Shown here: piece after piece, positions 3,805-27,549 of the stretch
Position numbering within the stretch: position 1 is the first letter of the stretch
Layout: each line of letters begins with the position of its first letter
IMG/VR virus record: IMGVR_UViG_3300034107_000314
Coordinates: 91,260-155,259 of that record
Strand: one strand, 5' to 3'
Length of the DNA stretch: 64,000 bases
DNA from: a virus
Notes under the pieces: generated by a model
Databases searched by the model: none
What the model was told of the DNA's origin: nothing
The model's input: only the letters and a program-made list of their open reading frames with translations
Made by a program: the position numbers and the translations under genes

Positions 3805-4116
3805 TTACAGTGTTGTTCTTCTCGGTCTTGGCGGCGGCGTTGGAATGCCAGTTGGCCTCAGCGGTGGAGTCACTGGAGTAACTACAGGAGCGTCCCTGTA
3901 CGCAGATGCGACAAGAGACTCAGCTTCTAGTTTAACACCGTCCAGCGTCAAAGCAAGTTCTTTTCTTTCATACGTCAAAAAGATATCACCGAGCTTATAA
4001 ATTGCACGCAATGTGTAGGTACTGTTGTTGTTTTGAACGATAGAAATATCTAAATCTCTATACTTGGTATTGAACGAGTTACTTGTTACAAGTGTCCAGC
4101 TGTCGGAACGTATCAT
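3805..4116 (-). CDS. hypothetical protein with Pro-rich C-terminus
   Basis: N-terminal region resembles the neighbouring ORF 4127-4594 (W...Y..L..SIVQ..N..Y), a probable paralogue. Confidence 0.55.
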   Translation of the reverse strand: MIRSDSWTLVTSNSFNTKYRDLDISIVQNNNSTYTLRAIYKLGDIFLTYERKELALTLDGVKLEAESLVASAYRDAPVVTPVTPPLRPTGIPTPPPRPRRTTL

Positions 4117-4126
4117 ATTATTATCC

Positions 4127-4594
4127 TCAAATAGTTTTTGGTGGTAGTGGTGAACTATTAATTACTTTACCAGATGGATCTTTAGGAACCCATACATAGC
4201 TTTCATTATCAATGAAGTCTTGTAATTTTGGCGGCAAACAGTTAATTCTAGACATAAGAAGCATAACGTGCGTCTTGCTAGCTTCAGTATATTTCTTTAT
4301 AGCTGCGGCTCGTCTGTTCCTAGCTTCTTGTTCTTCTTGAGTTATTTTTGGTAAAACAATAGGAAGTACTGCCACTCCAAAAGCCTGCAATACTACCTTA
4401 TCCGCTTCATCTTTTGCTGCGTCTATCGTTGGCAAGTCCAAAGACTGATTTAAAAAATTTGCATTTCCAACTTTTATTGCGGCAGTGAAGTCATATAATC
4501 CATTCTCATCTTGCACAATAGAGAATTTAAGATTGTTGTAACTTGCCACTTGACTTTTAGAATTTACTGAAACCCAATTATTTACTGTTCTCAT
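4127..4594 (-). CDS. hypothetical protein
   Basis: 155-aa ORF, overlaps the trx stop codon (ATGA). Confidence 0.55.
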   Translation of the reverse strand: MRTVNNWVSVNSKSQVASYNNLKFSIVQDENGLYDFTAAIKVGNANFLNQSLDLPTIDAAKDEADKVVLQAFGVAVLPIVLPKITQEEQEARNRRAAAIKKYTEASKTHVMLLMSRINCLPPKLQDFIDNESYVWVPKDPSGKVINSSPLPPKTI

Positions 4595-4986: not shown

Positions 4987-6450
4987 TTAAACGGTAGTCA
5001 ACTCTTTTTTTATTTTTTTTGCCGCAATCTTTTCTTCTCTAATTCTAATAGATTGTTCAATTTTTTCTACTTTAGATATTAACTTTTCTACATTCTTGGC
5101 TGTTACCCTTGAATAAGTTAAACCGTATTCATATAATTCTTCGCCAACTTTTCTAATATTATTGGCAGCGTTAACATGTGAATCTTCTGAGTGCTTACAT
5201 CGCAAGCAATGAAATTTATCAGCGTTTCTATTCTTTTTATCTATGTATTGGCATTTTGAACAAGTCATAGAGGTGTATGGAGAAGGAGAGACATAAAAAG
5301 GAATTCTCATATCTTCGCAGAGGAGTTGTACGTATTCGGATATGTATTGGCCGAACTCTCCTCCTGTTGCTCCAGTGTTAATTTTATCAATTGCTATTCC
5401 CATCTTTTCTGACTGGGCTTTATTGATAATCTGTAGTGCGAAAGGTCTAGTTGATTTTTGTATAGCTATGAGTACTTTATCTTTTTCTAATCTCTTTTTC
5501 TTTCTTTGTTTTGTATTGATGTCTTTGATGTCGTCTTCCTGTTTGGACTTAGACTTTGCTTTTGCTTTTGCTTTCTCTATATCCTTTTTTCTTTTTTTCT
5601 TTTTATTAACTTCTTTTGTAAGGATGTTGTTTTTTCTGATCAAGGCGCTCATTTCATCTGGTCTTGCAATTTTTTCGCCATCATCAAAAGTAATCCAGTC
5701 CATTGGCGTTTGATTAATATCAAATCCAATAAAACCAATAGGCTCATATTTTGTATCTACTAATATTGGTACAGCTGCTTTCATTACGGTAGTTCTAACT
5801 GTTTTATCTTTATTATAATTAAAGACGAAGTTACCTCCGAAATTCTCTCCAACCATTCCTTTTCCAATATATTTATAGATATCAACTTCTATCTTTCCTA
5901 TAGACGTAGGGAAAGTTAGTTTTTTTGTATCGTCATCATAATTTAAACCTTCTGATATATGTAATTTCTTGCCTTTAAAATTAATAATTGGAAGTCTAGG
6001 GTCTGGATCTTTATCATCATTATTTCTATTGATTGAAGATTCAATTCTATCTAGCGCGTGCTTCACTATGCTTCTTTTATAATTAGAAATTCCATCTTCA
6101 ACAAAATCGTACTTCTTAAAAATATCTGCGAATACTGTTTTTACTAATTTTGAAGTTGTAATAGTTGGCAATACGGCAAGTACATCGCCATTCCTGTCTC
6201 TTTTTTCTTTTAGTACAATATCATCTTTTAATGAGTTGTATAGCTCTTTACCATCAATTAAAATAAAATCGCAAAAAGACCCAAAGAATCTTTTATTTAT
6301 TTGTCCGGCTTTCATCAATTGTAATGTTCTGTTGCAAATTTCTTGGCAACATTTCTTAGCTTTAATTCTTTCTGATTCAAGCATTTCTAAGACATTTTTA
6401 TCTTTATTTTTTAAAATAATAGTTACGCCACGCCTTTTGTAGATTTGCAT
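4987..6450 (-). CDS. TnpB/Cas12f-like RNA-guided RuvC protein with altered catalytic triad
   Basis: RuvC-I GFDIN, RuvC-II IAIDK, YTSMTCSKC...FHCLRC Zn ribbon, RuvC-III DSHVNAANNI; no transposase or CRISPR array adjacent. Confidence 0.85.
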   Translation of the reverse strand: MQIYKRRGVTIILKNKDKNVLEMLESERIKAKKCCQEICNRTLQLMKAGQINKRFFGSFCDFILIDGKELYNSLKDDIVLKEKRDRNGDVLAVLPTITTSKLVKTVFADIFKKYDFVEDGISNYKRSIVKHALDRIESSINRNNDDKDPDPRLPIINFKGKKLHISEGLNYDDDTKKLTFPTSIGKIEVDIYKYIGKGMVGENFGGNFVFNYNKDKTVRTTVMKAAVPILVDTKYEPIGFIGFDINQTPMDWITFDDGEKIARPDEMSALIRKNNILTKEVNKKKKRKKDIEKAKAKAKSKSKQEDDIKDINTKQRKKKRLEKDKVLIAIQKSTRPFALQIINKAQSEKMGIAIDKINTGATGGEFGQYISEYVQLLCEDMRIPFYVSPSPYTSMTCSKCQYIDKKNRNADKFHCLRCKHSEDSHVNAANNIRKVGEELYEYGLTYSRVTAKNVEKLISKVEKIEQSIRIREEKIAAKKIKKELTTV

Positions 6451-6473
6451 ATATTTCCCTTTGTATAAATTTA

Positions 6474-6508
6474 AAAATAAAAGGCTTCTGTTACAAAGCC
6501 TTTTATTA
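6474..6508. terminator. intrinsic terminator-like hairpin directly upstream of the tnpB-like gene
   Basis: AATAAAAGGCT-loop-AGCCTTTTATT followed by a T-run on the minus strand. Confidence 0.6.
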
Positions 6509-6564
6509 GATGATTGACGTAAAATAATATATCCTTAAGATCATCACTTAGTTTTGTTATATTA

Positions 6565-7422
6565 TTATTTTGGTGGTTCAATAGGTCCAGCGTATTGATA
6601 ACTTGTTGAATTACCAAGGCTTATTATTGAATTAATTTCATTGGATGAGTATTCCTTGATACTTAAATGTCCATTAGACTTTAGCCAATAATATCCCGGA
6701 ATGGTTGGATAATCTTTCCATGTTAAATCGCTATATTTATTTATAAGTGATTTAGCAATATCTATAGGTATTTGAACTAATGCCAATCCTAAGTTTGGAT
6801 TTTCAGATATTACTTTTATTATAGATGATGGATCAAATGTATAGTTATCTGAATAGATTTTCGACATCTACATTCTCCAGTAATAGTTCGAATTCGAAAT
6901 CGCTAATTTTGTATTTTTTCTGCATGAGCATTAATACATTTACAAGTTGCATATTTTCTAGTGATTTTTGTCTTGCTATGCCCCAAGCCATAATGAAAGA
7001 TTTATTATTTAACAGGTCTTTGTCCTGTGTATCGAATTCTATAATCGCTTGAGATGTTTCAAAAATATTATCAAGATCCATTGTTTATCCCCCTACGACT
7101 TGCCATAAAAATTTATTTCTTGATTGATTATTTCTTCATTTGTTGACCATCCAGCTTTTTTAATATATGTATCTAACGCTTTTCTGGTTGCTGCATTTTC
7201 TTTCTTTAAATCTTCTATTTGTTGATTAAGTGATGCTATGTACTTAAGACCGAATTTGCATTTATTTGGAGGGCAACAGTCTAGTTCACCACATGAACCG
7301 CATGTTGAACAATATATGTCGTGCATTTCTTTTAATAGCTCCACTGGAAAGATATATCCATTATAGACATATTCACTTATTTCAGATAGTACGATTTTTA
7401 ATCTGTCTTGTTTCATTTTCAC
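6565..7422 (-). CDS. three small hypothetical genes (6565-6867, 6845-7081, 7093-7422)
   Basis: Tandem ORFs; 7093-7422 has a CSTCGSCGELDCCP Cys cluster. Confidence 0.5.
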
Positions 7423-19879: not shown

Positions 19880-20309
19880 ATGTTAGTTGCCTCTGTTCTA
19901 TATAGCCTATCTTGACACTTGCTGTATCTGGGACTTCATCCCCCACACACGCAGGTTTATTCCCATTTATAGAAATAATTTTAAAATACCATTCTTTTGA
20001 TCGGCGATTGTGGTTGCCGTTTTCACTGTTCACTGGTATCATCATAGTGTAATGAAATGAAGTCTTGGTGAACTCCCATGAGGAGACGAATGGGTTGTGA
20101 ACTAAGACGCAATGGAATGGAAGTATGGGGATTCAGAATCTCTATAGAAACAGGTTTTAATTTAAGGGTTTGAGATTTATACTTAGAGCCTTTAAAGAAT
20201 ATTAGCAAGTAAAGAAATATAAGTATGGTTAAGAGAATAATACAATGGTTACTTCTTATCTTGCTAATATACTTCAGTAAGTATTGTAAGAATAGAAGAA
20301 CACTAACAT
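19880..20309 (+). ncRNA. candidate large structured non-coding RNA or leader
   Basis: Nested helices ATGTTAGT/ACTAACAT, ACTTGCTG/CAGTAAGT, ATCCCC/GGGGAT, GTCTTGGT/ACTAAGAC, CGGCGAT/GTTGCCG, ATATTAGCAAG/CTTGCTAATAT; downstream of TGTGTATA at 19779. Confidence 0.55.
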
Positions 20310-20332
20310 ACAGTTTAATCAAGGAGAGTACA

Positions 20333-20680
20333 ATGGGTTTAATTTACGAAGTTGGTTTGGCTAGTTCAGTATCACCAGATGTTGTTAAGAGAGTACTGAG
20401 TGTAACAGTAGATGGTGCGGAAGTTGTAACAGAAGTGGACACTACTGCTACAAAATATGTGTTAGCTCCTGTTAAAGAGGGCGCTAATGTGACGGTGGCC
20501 CTGAAGGATGTGGATGACGCTGGCAATTCAAGCGAGTGGGCCACTGTAAGCTTTGTGGCAAAGGATACGCTCCCTCCAGAGACTCCGGGCGCTCCTACAG
20601 TCACTCTAGTAGAAGAAGTGGCCGATCCTGCCCCTGTGGTCATTGAAGGTGACGCTGTGGTTATTCCAACTGAAGGTTGA
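20333..20680 (+). CDS. Ig/fibronectin-III-like small protein
   Basis: AAGGAGA RBS; VDDAGNSSEW and DTLPPETPGAP motifs of Ig/Fn3-like repeats. Confidence 0.65.
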   Translation: MGLIYEVGLASSVSPDVVKRVLSVTVDGAEVVTEVDTTATKYVLAPVKEGANVTVALKDVDDAGNSSEWATVSFVAKDTLPPETPGAPTVTLVEEVADPAPVVIEGDAVVIPTEG

Positions 20681-20699
20681 TTTAGCTATATATAAACAA

Positions 20700-20737
20700 A
20701 ATAAGCCCAGAGGAATTAACCTCCGGGCTTTTTTATT
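20700..20737 (+). terminator. intrinsic terminator
   Basis: AAGCCCAGAGG-AATTAA-CCTCCGGGCTT followed by T-run. Confidence 0.85.
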
Positions 20738-20805
20738 ATACTTTTGGCATGAAAGTTACACTAGATTATTTAAAGTATAAAAGTAATATCTTAGCGTGCA
20801 ACTAA

Positions 20806-21467
20806 AAGTTAGCTGACTATGGCTATCCTGACGAATCTTAATATATAAGATGTTACAAGTCTAGACCATAGTCATCTGCATCATCTGATTTTGCTAGGCA
20901 CAATTCCCTCCATAGGGATTCTGCAAAGCTGACCAAATACTTAACACGGTCAGGGCTAGTGACTTCCCTAACACTATTTTTATATACTTCTACTGCTAAT
21001 TCTGAACAGAAGAAATCTGCTAAGAAGCTCGCCTTGTCAAGTTCATCGTCCATATTGTATTCCTTAAAAGTTAGCTGACTGTGGCTCATCCTGCGAATCA
21101 TAATAGATAAGGTGATACATTTAGTTTATGATATCCGAATATAAATAGTTAGGTGAACTAAGCCTGTATCAAGGCGATTATTTCTAATCAAATCCTACTT
21201 GTCTTTATATCCATATTAATATTATACCAGAGGGTCTATGAATTGTCAACTATAAAATTTAAATTACAATGGTCTTGGCATACACCCTGTGGTAGTTCCA
21301 CCCGGACGTGGAGTATAAACAATTCCAATAGGTCTAGAAACTGAAGTCTTAATAAGTTTAACTAATACATCAGGCTTTGGCGGTGGCGGTGGAACGTACA
21401 TTTTGATTCTCCTAAAAGTTAGCTGACTGTCACTATTCCCACGAATCTTATTATATAAGATGATACA
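20806..21467 (-). repeat. ~52-bp dispersed repeat, 3 copies (starting 20806, 21068, 21416)
   Basis: AAGTTAGCTGACT(A/G)T...CGAATC.TA.TA.ATAAG.TG.TACA. Confidence 0.9.
20853..21053 (-). CDS. hypothetical protein (MDDELDK...)
   Basis: AAGGA RBS directly after a repeat copy. Confidence 0.5.
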   Translation of the reverse strand: MDDELDKASFLADFFCSELAVEVYKNSVREVTSPDRVKYLVSFAESLWRELCLAKSDDADDYGLDL

Positions 21468-21527
21468 AAAAAATCCAAAAAAAAGGCCGGAGGGACAAAG
21501 CCCCCCAACCCCTCCAAACCCCCCAAG

Positions 21528-22703
21528 TCACCCAGCCGCTGCGAACACCTCATCTATCTGTTCTGACGTAATCGTCTTAGAGTACGCATTCAGCCTATCC
21601 CAATCATTCTCCGTATAGCTCGTAAGTTGTCCGCCCAACTCATCGAACTTGACCCAAGTCTCATTGGAGAGATTTTGCCCAGCCCTTGTGATAGAATTGA
21701 CAATTCCAAACAAGTTCCGATCATCTTTCTCAAATGTGGCAAACTGAGTTAAGACTTCTCTGCTCTCAGTTTTATCTAGTTTACTCCTAAGACATACAGC
21801 ACCTAAGATTTGTTTCATCGAACCTTCAACCTTTAAAGTTTGCAGGCCGAGGAACTTTCTAACACCAATTGGAATTAGTGGTAGTTGCTTCTCAATATTA
21901 TCGACGATACGCTTCTTAAGGTCAACTAGGTCAATCTTACCGATGTGACGACGATCAATCATCTCGCCCTCAGTTTTGCCCCAGATACAGCCGTTCATAC
22001 AGATAGACCTGAACAGGCTAGGCTTTTGACTAATCCTACGCTTGCCGATCTCACAATTCCCAACCGAGAGCATTCCACCATAGTCTGAGTCATCGCTTTG
22101 ACCATAGTCAATAATACTGTCAGGTAATAGGAGATTACCATAGATAGTATCATCGTCGCCCCGCCAGTGAGAATACATGGAACCCGGCAGATGCTCGTTC
22201 ATCGTTTCGAGATACCATCTATTATCAATCGGTGCATATCTATCGCTGACAAATGCACGAAGTGTACCATCGCTATAAGCACGAAGTCGATATTTCTTAT
22301 CCTTGTCCGCTCTTCGCATAGCATTTTTAGCAATACGAACAGCAACGTCCGAATCTTCCCAATCCGAATCATCTTGATTCAATAGCTCCCGAATGACTGT
22401 TGACGATGGCAGCTTGAGCCGCCCAGCGAATTGGCCCAATGCCCATTCTGTTGGTTTATATTGTTTACCTGCAACTTCGAAGGCAAACTTGCCGCCCTCA
22501 CCTACCACTGGTTCGATATCTGACAATGGAACCAGCATGTCCTCACGTTCCTCAGCAGACCGTTGAACAGTTTCCATCACCTGATCGAACGATTGGCACT
22601 TTTTAGCCCAGATCTTTGACACATGGAATCCATCGGCAAAGCCTTGTTGAGCCTTGACGAATGCACCAGCAGACTTGTCACTCTTGATCTCTAGCGTACT
22701 CAT
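21528..22703 (-). CDS. DUF932-like phage protein
   Basis: RAFVSDRYAPIDN, GNCEIG...LFRSICMNG, RRH.G, FGIVNSITR pattern. Confidence 0.6.
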   Translation of the reverse strand: MSTLEIKSDKSAGAFVKAQQGFADGFHVSKIWAKKCQSFDQVMETVQRSAEEREDMLVPLSDIEPVVGEGGKFAFEVAGKQYKPTEWALGQFAGRLKLPSSTVIRELLNQDDSDWEDSDVAVRIAKNAMRRADKDKKYRLRAYSDGTLRAFVSDRYAPIDNRWYLETMNEHLPGSMYSHWRGDDDTIYGNLLLPDSIIDYGQSDDSDYGGMLSVGNCEIGKRRISQKPSLFRSICMNGCIWGKTEGEMIDRRHIGKIDLVDLKKRIVDNIEKQLPLIPIGVRKFLGLQTLKVEGSMKQILGAVCLRSKLDKTESREVLTQFATFEKDDRNLFGIVNSITRAGQNLSNETWVKFDELGGQLTSYTENDWDRLNAYSKTITSEQIDEVFAAAG

Positions 22704-22783
22704 ATCTTTTGTCCTGCAATACTTGGTTAGTTGTTGTCTTCCTTACTCTTATATTATACCACAGGATTTCACCTTGTCAAGAG

Positions 22784-25056
22784 TTAAGAATACATTTCTT
22801 TCAATTCATTTACTTCCATCTGAGTGTTTACTATGTTCAAGGCCACTAGCATAGCAAAGTAGATTTGCTGCGATAGTTCCTTGTCACCCTGACTTACTTG
22901 ATTAGCAAGTGTATAAACCAAGGTAGATAAGACTCTATTCTCTTTATTGAGTTCAAGAGCCTTATCCTTAGCATACTTGAGCAGATCTCTCATAGCCTCT
23001 CTATGGACACTCTCTCCCACTTCTACGTCAATCTTTGGTAGCATCATTTATCACTCTCACTTCTACAACAGGATATCCGACCCAAGCATTATATGCCACA
23101 GGAACTTCACGCATGATCCTTTCTCTGAGTTCAGGAGTCATGTAATATTCGACGACTTTTAGGATCTGCTCTTTTTGGTGATGCGTCATGCTCATTATTT
23201 GATCTCGTACTTATAGGTTTTTTCTTCGTAGACTAAAGGCTTTGCCGTACTTACACCCTCTACGATTGCAAGACGATAGCCAAGACGTTCGAGAGCCTCA
23301 TAGTGAGCAGCATCGCTTGACTGTACGTCACAATAGCCACCTTCTTCAGCGTCACGAATGTTTGCATCGGCCTTGAACTCCGCTTCTAAATCTTGTGACT
23401 CGCCAGTTTTTTCGTTGGTTAGGACAAATTTCCAGCTACGCATTGTTGATTCTCCAATGTCACTTTCATGTTATGTACTAGTAGTTTGCTACCACTCATT
23501 GTCACTGTAGATATTGTACCATCTGGAGTCTTGCATGTCAAGATCCAAAGTTGATTATGTCGAACGATTTCGTAGGTGTTCATGATTGTCCCCAATTCTC
23601 AATTTCGTATTGTGTTTCGCCAGCGTTTCGAGCGTAGATAGTTTTATCACTTGCGTAGGGATGGTCAAAGTTGAAAGGCTTATAGATCTCATACTTATAT
23701 AGAGACCCATTCGTCTTTTTTACTACCAGCCCTTTGGACTTAGCTAGTTGTTCAAGAGCTTTGAGTGTTAATCTCATTTGTCAATATCCTCTGGTAAGGG
23801 AAATCCACCAATGACAGGACAGTTATCTCCATCCAATTCGCCTTGAGTTCGGATACCCATATTCTCTAGCTCAGCCTCAAACGCCTCTTGACTATCTAAT
23901 AGACGATCAAGCAGTGTTATTTGATAGTATTCAATTAGACTTTCTATATCCATACTGTCAACCGACAACTGAGCCAGATTCTTACAATTACTGTATGTGT
24001 TCTCGATCATATCTTTCCCTTTCTTGTACTGCAATTATATCATATGAGGGGCTGAATGTCAACCCCCCAAGCTATATATTTTTAGTCAATCTGGGCGAGC
24101 AGTTCGCCAGCACGCTTGGCCGCGATGATTTCGGCCAGCTTGGAGAGATCCTTCTTAGGCTTGCGAACTTCGTCGCTTCGTCGCATGGTCGGCAGTTCTA
24201 CGCCAACTTCCTTAAGCTCTTTGCGGAGCTTGAGAGCCTTCTGGTAAGACGTTTCAAGGTCAAGGCCAAAATGGTCGGCAACGTCTTGGATCGTGCCACT
24301 GGTGACGTTTGTAGCGGCATCAAAGCCACGTTGGAAAACATCCATATAAACAGACACAAAATCTTCAGCATTGATGAACTTGCGTGTTGTTTTAGCCATC
24401 GGTATAGATCTCTTTCTTTAGATAGAAGATAGTGGATTTGGCTTCAAACCAGTCGTGAGTGAGATCCACTTAACTCATCATACGTTTGACTGGCTATACT
24501 ACTATTATACAGGATAGAACGCAGTTGTCAAGACTTACTTGGTGAAAATTACAGGATTCACCATTTTTACACATGAGAGGGAAGCAATGCGATTGAACCC
24601 CTTGTCAGTGTATTGCAGGACGACATATTGACCATTAGAGCTTACACCCTGACGAATGATCTTACCATCACGAACCTTGAGGATATTACGATTGCCGCCT
24701 ACAGGGTAGGAAACAACCAACTTACGACCGTTGCGAACATTGATTGACTTGAGCATATCTTAGATCTCCTTAGAACTGACACTTGGTTACTGACCACACA
24801 TATATTCTAACACAGGTGAGTTTACTTGTCAAGCATACGGCCAATAATCTGATTTTATTTCATGTTTCAGATCCTTGACCTCAGCTTCAAGTAGAACTAC
24901 GTATTCCTCTAGCTTTTTATGTATTTCTTGATAGTAGCGGTCAGCTTGTGACCCTTCCCAATCATAACCATAATCCTTAACCTGATTAAGAATGCACTCG
25001 TCATATTTCTGTCTAGTAGAGGCAAGCTCATTTTTCACCTGTTCAATCTTACTCAT
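22784..25056 (-). CDS. early small hypothetical genes (22784-23047, 23195-23443, 23580-23777, 23774-24010, 24082-24399, 24535-24756, 24829-25056)
   Basis: Most have their own TTGACA..TATAAT-type promoter and RBS; 24082-24399 has an HTH-like TIQDVADHFGL segment. Confidence 0.55.
24431..24495 (-). ncRNA. pseudoknot RNA motif copy E3 (5' leader of 24082-24399)
   Basis: AGCCAGTC/GACTGGTT, TGAG/CTCA, loop AGTGGAT pairs ATCCACT after CCAA. Confidence 0.7.
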
Positions 25057-25173
25057 CTTTTCACTCCACTTCGTTTCGTTCGTTTCTCACTTCCTTACTC
25101 CTATATTATACATCATAGAAAGCTGTTGTCAAGCCCTGTGGGGTGTTATTTTGGAGATTATTTTATATTGTTG

Positions 25174-25250
25174 TAAGTGCTTGTGGTGTAAGGACTTGCG
25201 GCGAGGCGCGCTAGCGGGGTCGCTGTAAATCCTTACGTAGTAAGTACTTA
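25174..25250. repeat. 77-bp paired-dyad site, copy 1 of 7
   Basis: TAAGTGCTTG-N5-TAAGGACTTG-N27-TAAATCCTTA-N5-TAAGTACTTA. Confidence 0.9.
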
Positions 25251-25251
25251 C

Positions 25252-25279
25252 GAAAAAACCCACCGCAACGAGCGATGGG
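25252..25279 (-). terminator. intrinsic terminator after the tRNA operon
   Basis: CCCATCGC-TCGTT-GCGGTGGG-TTTTT. Confidence 0.75.
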
Positions 25280-25294
25280 CCACTTTAAAAGGAA

Positions 25295-25368
25295 TACCCC
25301 GATCAGGATTTGAACCTGAAACCTACAGCTTAGAAGGCTGTTGCTCTATCCAATTGAGCTATCGGGGC
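25295..25368 (-). tRNA. tRNA-Arg(UCU)
   Basis: Loop CT-TCT-AA. Confidence 0.92.
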
Positions 25369-25373
25369 TTATA

Positions 25374-25437
25374 TTGAGTATTTTGGTCATAAGATAATCT
25401 CAGGTAAGAATACTCAAACTTACTTTAGTGATTATCT
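25374..25437 (-). ncRNA. pseudoknot RNA motif copy E1 (between tRNA-Leu and tRNA-Arg)
   Basis: AGATAATC/GATTATCT, GTAAG/CTTAC, loop TTGAGTATT pairs AATACTCAA after CCAA. Confidence 0.75.
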
Positions 25438-25439
25438 AA

Positions 25440-25524
25440 TACGGATGATGGGAATCGAACCCATATGAGGTTTAATCCTCGACAGATTTTAAGTCTGTTG
25501 CGTATACCATTTCGCCACATCCGC
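25440..25524 (-). tRNA. tRNA-Leu(UAA)
   Basis: Loop CT-TAA-AA, long variable arm. Confidence 0.92.
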
Positions 25525-25529
25525 ATGAA

Positions 25530-25602
25530 TACCCCTACGGAGAATTGAACTCCGGTTTCAAGATTGAAAATCTTGCGTCCTAGGCCACTAGACGATAAGG
25601 GC
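25530..25602 (-). tRNA. tRNA-Glu(UUC)
   Basis: Loop TT-TTC-AA. Confidence 0.9.
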
Positions 25603-25611
25603 ATTTACCAC

Positions 25612-25684
25612 TTGGCCTATCGGGGTACGATCCCGAAACCTGTCACTTATAAGGTGACTGCTCTACCAATTGAGCTATAGGCCA
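25612..25684 (-). tRNA. tRNA-Ile(UAU)
   Basis: GTCAC-CTTATAA-GTGAC; T-loop ATCGTAC (A54). Confidence 0.85.
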
Positions 25685-25689
25685 GTAGA

Positions 25690-25753
25690 TGCCATTTTTG
25701 GACTGAAGTCAATCTCGTTTGGGAAATGGCAAACCCAACTTCATTGATCGACT
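25690..25753 (-). ncRNA. pseudoknot RNA motif copy E2 (at the TSS of the tRNA operon)
   Basis: AGTCGATC/GATTGACT, TTGGG/CCCAA, loop TGCCATTT pairs AAATGGCA after CCAA; 5 nt after a TTGACA-17-TATAAT promoter. Confidence 0.75.
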
Positions 25754-25764
25754 ATCTTATTATA

Positions 25765-27549
25765 TCACTTCACTTTCAGTTTGTCAACTAGACGCCTGAG
25801 AAAACTCTTGTTAATCTTCTGGACATTTACGAGACGACCATCGTAGAATGACTTGATTTTATTATCACTCAACTGAATGGTCAGCAAATACTGTGATCTC
25901 TCAAGATCCATGTTACGCAAGATTGTCTCGTATCGCAGTCTATGTTCAAACATATCACGAACTTGGATTACAGTACCTTCATATTCCTTGATCTCATATA
26001 GGGTATGAGCAGGAAGATGAGTACGATCTAATTTCCGTTCGATGTACTGGAACTTGACTTTGTTACCAGCGGTCAATTGTGCGATCATCTCTATCTTCTC
26101 CTGAAAGGTTTGAATCATCTTCATCTCACTACTCTATTATACCATCTCGTATTCACTTGTCAAGCAACTTTTTCGAGAACTTTCCTCGAATCTGTATTCG
26201 CCAGCAAAGATTTCGTTCAACGTCTCTAGGCTAGCAATGAAGTCACGATAAGATGAGAACTCATCAATATCGGTTTTTTGGTTATCGTATACTTTGCCAG
26301 TTGACAGGTTTGTCATCTTGTAGAAATAGATCATTCGTCTTCTCCTATTTCAAAAACTTCCCAGTCGTCTACATCCTTAGTAGAAAAATACTCTACAGTA
26401 TAAGGATACTGTTCTATCTTCTCATTTGCTATTTCTTTAGCATGATCTCTATTCTCAGCTTCAACGTCGATATCAACGCCGTGAATTTCGTACACTCTGA
26501 CGACATACTTCTTCATACATTACCCCGGATAGATAGAGATATTGAAACCACTCAAGAACGCATCGGACAACAGCTCAAATCGACCACCACCGTGGCTTGG
26601 CATGAAGATATGAATATCTCCATTATCTGCGATGTTACCAGAGAACATCTTATCAAGAGTTGGCACATACAGCAAGCAGTTCGTTTCCATCACTCACTCC
26701 CTTTCTTACTACTCTATTGTATCACACGATCCTGTCTTGTCAAGCTCAAAATGCCTTAATCGTAAGATTTTGAATTGGCAAGAGAGAGATGTTTATCACT
26801 TTGGGCTGCTTTGGTTCTTCGACCCTTACCTCTACGCTTCCCACTTTGGGAGCTACCAGAGCAGGAAATGGGGCTTCCCGCTTCTGGAAGTGTTTGCATC
26901 CACTGCATGACAGGATCAAAACCGCAATAATCGTCAATCGCATAGGTCACTCCTTTGTTAGTTTCCCTATATATATTATCGACATTTTGCGGCTCCCTAT
27001 CCAGCTTATTCTCCCAAAATTCAGCAGAAAATTCAAGAACATCTCTCATCGGCTACACTCCCTATAAAAAATTAAACTTCTTCAGGCCAGTTAAACCACA
27101 GTTGAGGTTGATTCTTATCTATAAGATAGTCTTCATCATCATTATCTAGCATGAGTGCATCATGATCTAGTATATATGTTGAATCGTTTTCTACATCGTA
27201 CAATTGAATGTCAGTGTCCAAGAAACGCTCATCAATCTGAGCTTCTTTAAGTTCACGCCATGTCATGGTCGATATCCCTTTTATCAGTGGTTCGTTCCCA
27301 CCGTTGTTTATGTTCTACTACATCATGCAAATATTTCTTGCCATCGCTGTTGAATGTCCATACATCCATCACTTCTTCCTGTTCAGGGATGATAAGATCG
27401 TCATCACCACTTGGGTCGTACCCCTTAAGAGCTTCGCGAGTTGCCCCCCGAAGTTTCTTGTTACATTGTTTCTTGCTACTCTTATCAGAGTCACCAGCGA
27501 TTTTGAAGATTGGCGTTTTGCGATATGACTTACCCACTTTATTCTCCAC
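25765..27549 (-). CDS. early small hypothetical genes (25765-26124, 26137-26334, 26331-26516, 26746-26943 lipoprotein-like, 27072-27266, 27253-27549)
   Basis: Tandem ORFs; 26746-26943 has a lipobox-like LSCSGC; 25765-26124 is weakly WYL-like. Confidence 0.5.

Follow-up and report, generated by a model that had tools for sequence, protein, structure and literature searches.

Three short segments on the minus strand of a phage genome differ in sequence and can nevertheless be drawn as one and the same pseudoknot, raising the question of whether they are copies of a single functional RNA and what such an RNA would do. The segments lie in the window analysed here, a stretch of 64,000 nt (bases 91260-155259 of the 155,259-bp IMG/VR phage record IMGVR_UViG_3300034107_000314; G+C, 36%), and read on the minus strand as first described, at 25437-25374 (E1), 25753-25690 (E2) and 24495-24431 (E3). 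Comparative analysis showed seven copies in the genome, five of them in the window, and ten further copies across six related metagenomic contigs, giving 17 copies in all. The element is an uncatalogued, narrowly distributed family of 60-68-nt RNA modules whose class of fold is already known. Its assignment as a functional RNA fold, made in the original prediction, is well supported, with compensatory changes in all three helices, the pseudoknot included.

The helices follow the order P1-P2-PK-P2'-P1'-PK', in which PK is the pseudoknot helix. P1 has 8 bp and is followed by an A-rich junction of 7-10 nt; P2 has 4-5 bp, and its opening pair is U-A in all 17 copies. The 3' part of the loop pairs with the 3' tail over 6-10 bp, and the 5' strand of this pseudoknot helix lies flush with the 3' strand of P2 (a zero-nucleotide junction) in 15 of the 17 copies, an arrangement that favours coaxial stacking. 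In 13 copies, the linker that leads back from the P1 base to the pseudoknot has 9 nt (range over all copies, 8-10 nt); its first five or six bases are free to vary. Of the unpaired bases, none is invariant across the 17 copies, and the helix sequences differ between all copies within the genome. Only the architecture is under selection, not the sequence. A 10-nt loop starting with UU and a 9-nt linker ending with CCAA had been described as fixed features; both hold in the three original copies only. Over the 17 copies the loop ranges from 7 to 14 nt, and the linker end reads ACAA, AUAA, CA or AU elsewhere.

The additional copies were found with covariance models. The first model, built from the three original copies as had been proposed for them, contained P1 and P2 only; the pseudoknot is not encodable and was kept as an independent test. 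This model detected E5 in another part of the genome (37.7 bits, E = 2.8e-5), E4 within the window (21.7 bits; flagged earlier by a motif descriptor of our own) and five copies in two related records, G001 and G002 (G000 being the phage genome itself and L-numbers denoting related contigs or loci). A second model, based on ten sequences and run without filters, added E6, E7 and the copies in L110, L112, L140 and L144. The relatives thus contribute four copies in G001, one in G002, two in the marine contig L110 and one each in L112, L140 and L144. Every newly found copy shows loop-to-tail complementarity of 6-10 bp at the expected place, unseen by the models. A match at window positions 4111-4161 (19 bits) was dropped as a false positive, having no P2. 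MAFFT misaligned E4, and model-based alignments were therefore used. The first two motif descriptors were too loose, giving ~13 chance matches per genome, and an anchor-free descriptor run on 613 kb of related loci was indistinguishable from shuffles. Many of the spurious matches of the first descriptor came from collagen-like triplet repeats (Gly-X-Y) at genome positions 1-1000, outside the window.

Comparison of 14 sequences showed that paired cells amount to 93.4%, versus 65.0% in column shuffles, with none of 500 shuffles reaching the observed value. Sliding the partners by 1-3 columns lowers the paired cells to 31-42%, and both sides have changed in 16 of the 20 base pairs. The pseudoknot helix is 85.8% paired, despite three or four rows that are shifted by one column. 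Within a single copy, loop and tail match over 6-10 bp (mean of 7.9 bp), as against a mean of 4.5 bp for loops and tails taken from different copies. The compensatory changes claimed for P1, P2 and the pseudoknot from three copies alone accordingly persist among the wider homologues. Individual replacements show the same behaviour: the E1 copy in L112 carries a compensated change from A-U to G-C within the pseudoknot, and two adjacent P1 pairs are swapped in the E1 copy of G001. Between the phage genome and G001, five of the eight P1 pairs and all of P2 in E4 are replaced with compensation, whereas the 46 nt upstream and the terminator are identical, indicating that selection acts on the fold. 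G-U pairs are present in P1 and in the pseudoknot, and the structure therefore belongs to the transcribed strand. A DNA-level operator was rejected, as it leaves both the pseudoknot and the G-U pairs unexplained.

The 46 nt upstream of E4 (20805-20850, minus strand) are conspicuous in their own right. They are 100% identical in the two genomes, compared with ~80% for the preceding coding sequence and ~55% for the element, and represent either a constrained element of their own or a recent recombination tract.

Because nested folding leaves the pseudoknot out, single copies gave unremarkable z-scores (-0.7 to -1.0). The nested cores have -3 to -13 kcal/mol, to which the pseudoknot contributes about another -5 to -10 kcal/mol.

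The seven genomic copies are dispersed over 80 kb, and all are oriented with the surrounding genes. Two lie at predicted transcription starts. E2 forms the 5' end of the tRNA operon transcript and E3 that of the mRNA for a 105-aa open reading frame (ORF; 24399-24082). Both follow consensus sigma-70-type promoters with perfect TTGACA/TATAAT boxes (25759-25787 and 24504-24531, minus strand), as had been proposed; P1 begins 6 nt (E2) and 8 nt (E3) past the promoter, its base being 0-2 nt from the start site that these promoters predict. The pseudoknot tails of E2 and E1 end exactly 5 nt before a tRNA, again in agreement with the first description (tRNA-Ile at 25684 and tRNA-Arg at 25368, respectively). 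E1 is located between tRNAs, and its 5' edge is 2 nt past the discriminator base of tRNA-Leu. The operon that holds E2 and E1 is closed by a terminator at 25257-25281 (minus strand). The G002 copy has its 3' end ~5 nt ahead of tRNA-Met.

E4, E5 and E6 are located between a stop codon and an intrinsic terminator, ending 4-6 nt before the stem. E4 (20736-20803, minus strand) lies in the 3' untranslated region of an 82-aa ORF (21101-20853) and stops 5-6 nt before the stem of a terminator (20703-20730, minus strand) that is extended by pairing between its A-tract and U-tract. E6 (6509-6566, minus strand) overlaps with its P1 the stop codon of a 100-aa ORF (6867-6565) and stops 4 nt before a terminator directly 3' of it (6472-6504, minus strand). 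E5 (genome 37985-37924) and E7 (genome 82518-82458) are outside the window, and E7 is placed between a stop codon and a Shine-Dalgarno sequence. E4 and E5 are at junctions of convergent transcription. The four downstream contexts thus differ among the copies, and the initial assignment of the motif to transcript 5' ends and tRNA leaders is not specific, with a stop codon preceding four of the seven genomic copies.

Copies that adjoin promoters or sit directly upstream of terminators might be expected if the element signalled in cis to RNA polymerase or modulated termination, in the manner of putL/putR of phage HK022 and nutL/nutR of lambda. Such a role is very unlikely here: no same-strand gene lies behind the terminator at the convergent junctions of E4 and E5, E7 is followed by a ribosome-binding site instead of a terminator, and there are no conserved bases for polymerase or a factor. 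The constant 4-6 nt to the next helix (E1, E2, E4, E5, E6 and the G002 copy) is in turn what would be seen if the element were a folding insulator, taking up the sequence around it and so allowing the neighbouring tRNA, terminator hairpin or ribosome-binding site to fold on its own, and the dispensable, modular nature of the element suits that role. However, other tRNAs of the same operon are spaced 3-8 nt apart without an insulator, no stable helix follows E3, and a plain hairpin would suffice, which leaves the conserved pseudoknot unexplained. We consider an insulator unlikely.

Among cultured phages this one has no close relative, its large terminase reaching only 27% identity, with Bacillus siphovirus terminases. 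A megablast search of the region against cultured phages returned a tRNA-Arg as the sole match, and tblastn of cultured phages with a capsid-region protein returned none; relatives were retrieved via the neighbouring proteins. For the ORF before E6 no relatives were found, and for the ORF after E3 only G001 was found.

Comparison of orthologous sites showed turnover of the element among relatives. The E1 site is empty in L110, L111, L115 and L121, in which the next tRNA directly follows tRNA-Leu. Seven relatives with a flanking protein of 57-83% identity lack the element at the E5 site; in L140 (flanking protein 89% identical) and L144 (60%) that site is filled with elements whose helices are entirely different. 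Between the phage genome and L140 the element is wholly different and the adjoining terminator identical. Of 18 related contigs, 15 have at the E2 site a plain 9-bp hairpin whose distance from the -10 box is the same, which suggests that any stable 5' structure serves there. This hairpin (L111-L127, after the homologue of a 119-aa ORF; for example, L114:4369-4420) is conserved, has a 4-nt loop and begins immediately past the -10 box, with its 3' end ~6 nt short of the first tRNA. The stem shows compensatory changes among the relatives and as DNA is a perfect palindrome, which could serve as an operator.

Variable presence at orthologous sites of close relatives, together with the wholly different element beside an identical terminator at the E5 site, is also what a selfish or nearly neutral structured insertion would leave behind while spreading between permissive transcribed gaps by recombination. 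Three observations make this improbable. As no helix sequence is common to the copies within a genome, they were not copied recently; the compensatory evolution of three helices represents sustained selection on an RNA fold; and neither target-site duplications nor terminal repeats are seen.

Beyond the six contigs, no element was found in loci around homologues of a 391-aa protein (most at 33-51% identity), in five whole relatives of 150-166 kb, in five further related records or in 101 genomes of the candidate host's order. These wider searches used lossy filters, and one of them missed the genome's own E6, so the results are to be read as 'not found' and not as 'absent'.

In Rfam 15, only tRNAs are found in the whole window at gathering thresholds. 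At permissive E-values, E1-E3, E4 and five related loci yielded tRNAs and sub-threshold families of small RNAs and leaders, these sub-threshold matches being driven by the terminators; no Rfam 15 family thus matches the element, a comparison that had been set as a check at the outset. A tRNA-like structure or RNase P substrate was rejected because there is no match to the tRNA model and CCA is not conserved. A stimulator of frameshifting or readthrough was also rejected, as there is no slippery site and the positions are not in frame. The preQ1-II and SAM-II aptamers resemble the element in a loop that pairs outside its own hairpin, in stacked helices and in an A-rich strand placed for the minor groove. 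The phage element has neither conserved bases for ligand contacts nor a consistent expression platform, and it matches no Rfam family; with no invariant unpaired base and four different downstream contexts, a riboswitch aptamer is an unlikely reading.

A self-cleaving element had been suggested at the outset, and the surroundings of E1 give some reason to consider a new class of ribozyme for trimming the 3' ends of tRNAs and cutting transcripts within intergenic gaps. Theta ribozymes, a minimal kind of HDV-like ribozyme (HDV, hepatitis delta virus), were reported next to the 3' ends of phage tRNAs (PMC10879173), and like them the phage element is a small pseudoknotted RNA in a phage tRNA array, E1 being 2 nt past a tRNA 3' end. 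However, most phage copies are not at tRNA 3' ends. The helix order also differs: HDV-like and theta ribozymes have the order P1-P2-P3-P3'-P1'-P2', with P2 having its 5' strand upstream of the P3 hairpin, whereas the phage element pairs its 3' tail with the inner hairpin's loop and has no P3, L3 or P1.1. The catalytic C of the HDV-like ribozymes is invariant; the phage element has no invariant unpaired nucleotide, and in two copies, E5 and the L110 version of E2, the linker lacks C altogether. At E-values up to 10 there was no match to any ribozyme family. In addition, E2 and E3 begin at transcription starts, so that cleavage at the 5' edge would remove almost nothing. Small phage ribozymes are similarly patchy and similarly found in intergenic gaps, but the balance of these observations makes self-cleavage quite improbable.

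Another suggestion of the original prediction, a mimic of a type III toxin-antitoxin antitoxin of the ToxI kind, fared worse. The trait in common is that of a small pseudoknotted RNA associated with phages and linked to phage-host conflict. ToxI antitoxins are tandem ~36-nt repeats, whereas the phage copies are dispersed and not conserved in sequence, and no adjoining toxin gene is present. No tandem array of ~36-nt repeats exists in 20000-27000, and the ORFs flanking E1-E3 match no toxin-like (ToxN/AbiQ) Pfam or PHROG family. This mimicry is extremely unlikely.

A further possibility is that the element is itself the product, freed from tRNA precursors by RNase P and RNase Z or left as a tail piece together with a terminator, and acts in trans as a decoy or sponge that presents its shape to a host or phage protein, such as a defence nuclease or an RNA chaperone. 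Occurrence in any transcribed gap, whatever the neighbours, would follow from such a role, and next to tRNAs the processing of the tRNAs would cut the element out precisely. The multiple copies and their patchy distribution among relatives are also often seen with accessory anti-defence functions. However, a protein would find no conserved nucleotide to recognise, E3 and E7 lack obvious excision sites, and the flanking ORFs yielded no candidate partner gene. A role in trans appears doubtful.

Conservation of shape only, occupancy of any transcribed gap, the swap with a hairpin at a 5' end and the positions typical of stabilising stem-loops together point to a mechanical role. Our tentative preference is for a cis-acting, sequence-independent obstacle or cap against RNases, in which the blocking of nucleases and its direction are what we infer. 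The element would be transcribed within early and middle transcripts and would act in cis as a compact, knotted barrier, both at the ends of RNAs and between their segments. Placed at a 5' end, it would, like a 5' hairpin, withhold from RNase E or a pyrophosphohydrolase the free single-stranded end that they require. Behind a stop codon, or ahead of a terminator or ribosome-binding site, it would halt exonucleases or scanning endonucleases, and in doing so would set which RNA segments survive.

Two groups of known RNAs bear on this preference. The ompA-type 5' stem-loops and the REP-type stem-loops occupy the same positions, namely the very 5' end, the region after stop codons and the gaps between cistrons; the REP elements of Escherichia coli are stabilising intergenic stem-loops in the same places as E4-E7. 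The phage element differs from both in being a pseudoknotted three-helix fold and not a hairpin, and from REP elements also in that its copies share no primary sequence. The second group is the exoribonuclease-resistant RNAs (xrRNAs). In the plant-virus xrRNAs, the apical loop of a stem-loop pairs downstream and a ring forms near the 5' strand, and such folds stop bacterial RNase J1 as well (PMC8374639). The phage element shares with the Tombusviridae/Luteoviridae-type xrRNAs an apical loop that pairs 3' of its stem, a ring of ~15 or more nt near the 5' end, a location in untranslated regions and the precedence of shape over sequence. In contrast, it has no sequence or covariance-model similarity to them in Rfam, is larger (8-bp P1 and 6-10-bp pseudoknot), belongs to a DNA phage, has several copies that lie either right at the 5' end or immediately ahead of a terminator, and has candidate hosts in which RNase J scores far below the cut-off. 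The likeness is confined to topology and does not amount to membership.

Several observations weigh against an obstacle or cap. No single direction of protection explains all the contexts: placed just before a terminator, a barrier gives little protection from the 5' side, and at a start site there is nothing upstream for it to guard. The narrower proposal of a 5'-end protector stands in part. It agrees with E2 and E3 at predicted starts and with the plain hairpin at the E2 site in 15 of the 18 related contigs, and leaves the copies before terminators, between tRNAs and between cistrons unexplained. The element is also optional and dispensable, the E1 and E5 sites being empty in close relatives. 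Several copies are weak, the cores of E6 and E7 having only -3 to -6 kcal/mol and their pseudoknots -5 to -6 kcal/mol, and any barrier effect must therefore come from topology and not from stability.

The nucleases of the candidate hosts add a further difficulty. A DUF1559 prepilin-like gene of the phage (genome 73782-74906, minus strand, outside the window; L130) has homologues of 54-79% identity in nine contigs of metagenome-assembled genomes (MAGs), most labelled Planctomycetota. This is a possible clue to the host, or those contigs may be mis-binned phage DNA. In four planctomycete MAGs that carry such homologues and are candidate hosts only, RNase J (TIGR00649) scored far below the cut-off, and RNase E/G is present in three of the four. 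The exact flavivirus-type mechanism would thus lack its enzyme. If the host is a planctomycete, the relevant enemies of the RNA would be the 5'-end-dependent RNase E and 3' exonucleases.

Inspection of the surrounding genes gave further observations on the tRNAs and on the neighbours of single copies. None of the phage tRNA genes inspected (25295-25684 and other clusters) encodes the 3' CCA, so that their maturation must use RNase Z-type cleavage and a CCA-adding enzyme. In G002, the Rfam tRNA model is matched end to end by a segment of 124 nt (L046:2066-2189; 42.8 bits), which suggests a tRNA gene with an insertion or intron of ~50 nt. Just upstream of the G002 copy (L046:1435-1500), a 9-codon mini-ORF is enclosed in a long-range helix of 8-9 bp whose 3' strand abuts the element; this helix may be a further leader structure. 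Directly 3' of the E6 terminator, a 487-aa ORF (4987-6450, minus strand) encodes a Cas12f1-like TNB (TnpB-type) domain. It has no recognisable promoter of its own and is probably an IS605-family insertion.

Structured RNAs that act through their shape only are known from RNA viruses of eukaryotes, in the form of the xrRNAs, and bacteria have plain hairpins such as 5' stem-loops and REP elements. Against this background, it is possible, though doubtful, that the element is the first nuclease-blocking, knot-like fold in a DNA bacteriophage, an analogue of the xrRNAs used as a portable module that would cap 5' ends, punctuate operons and set the lifetimes of RNA segments in an RNase E-based host. 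A covariation-supported pseudoknot module that a phage places at transcription starts, in the gaps between tRNAs or cistrons and ahead of terminators would provide a compact natural part with which to control RNA ends. The element would add an uncatalogued family to the RNA repertoire of phages, and its 17 natural variants with different helices already define the tolerances of the fold. If it is merely a dispensable insertion, it would show how strongly an RNA fold can persist while the sequence of every helix turns over.

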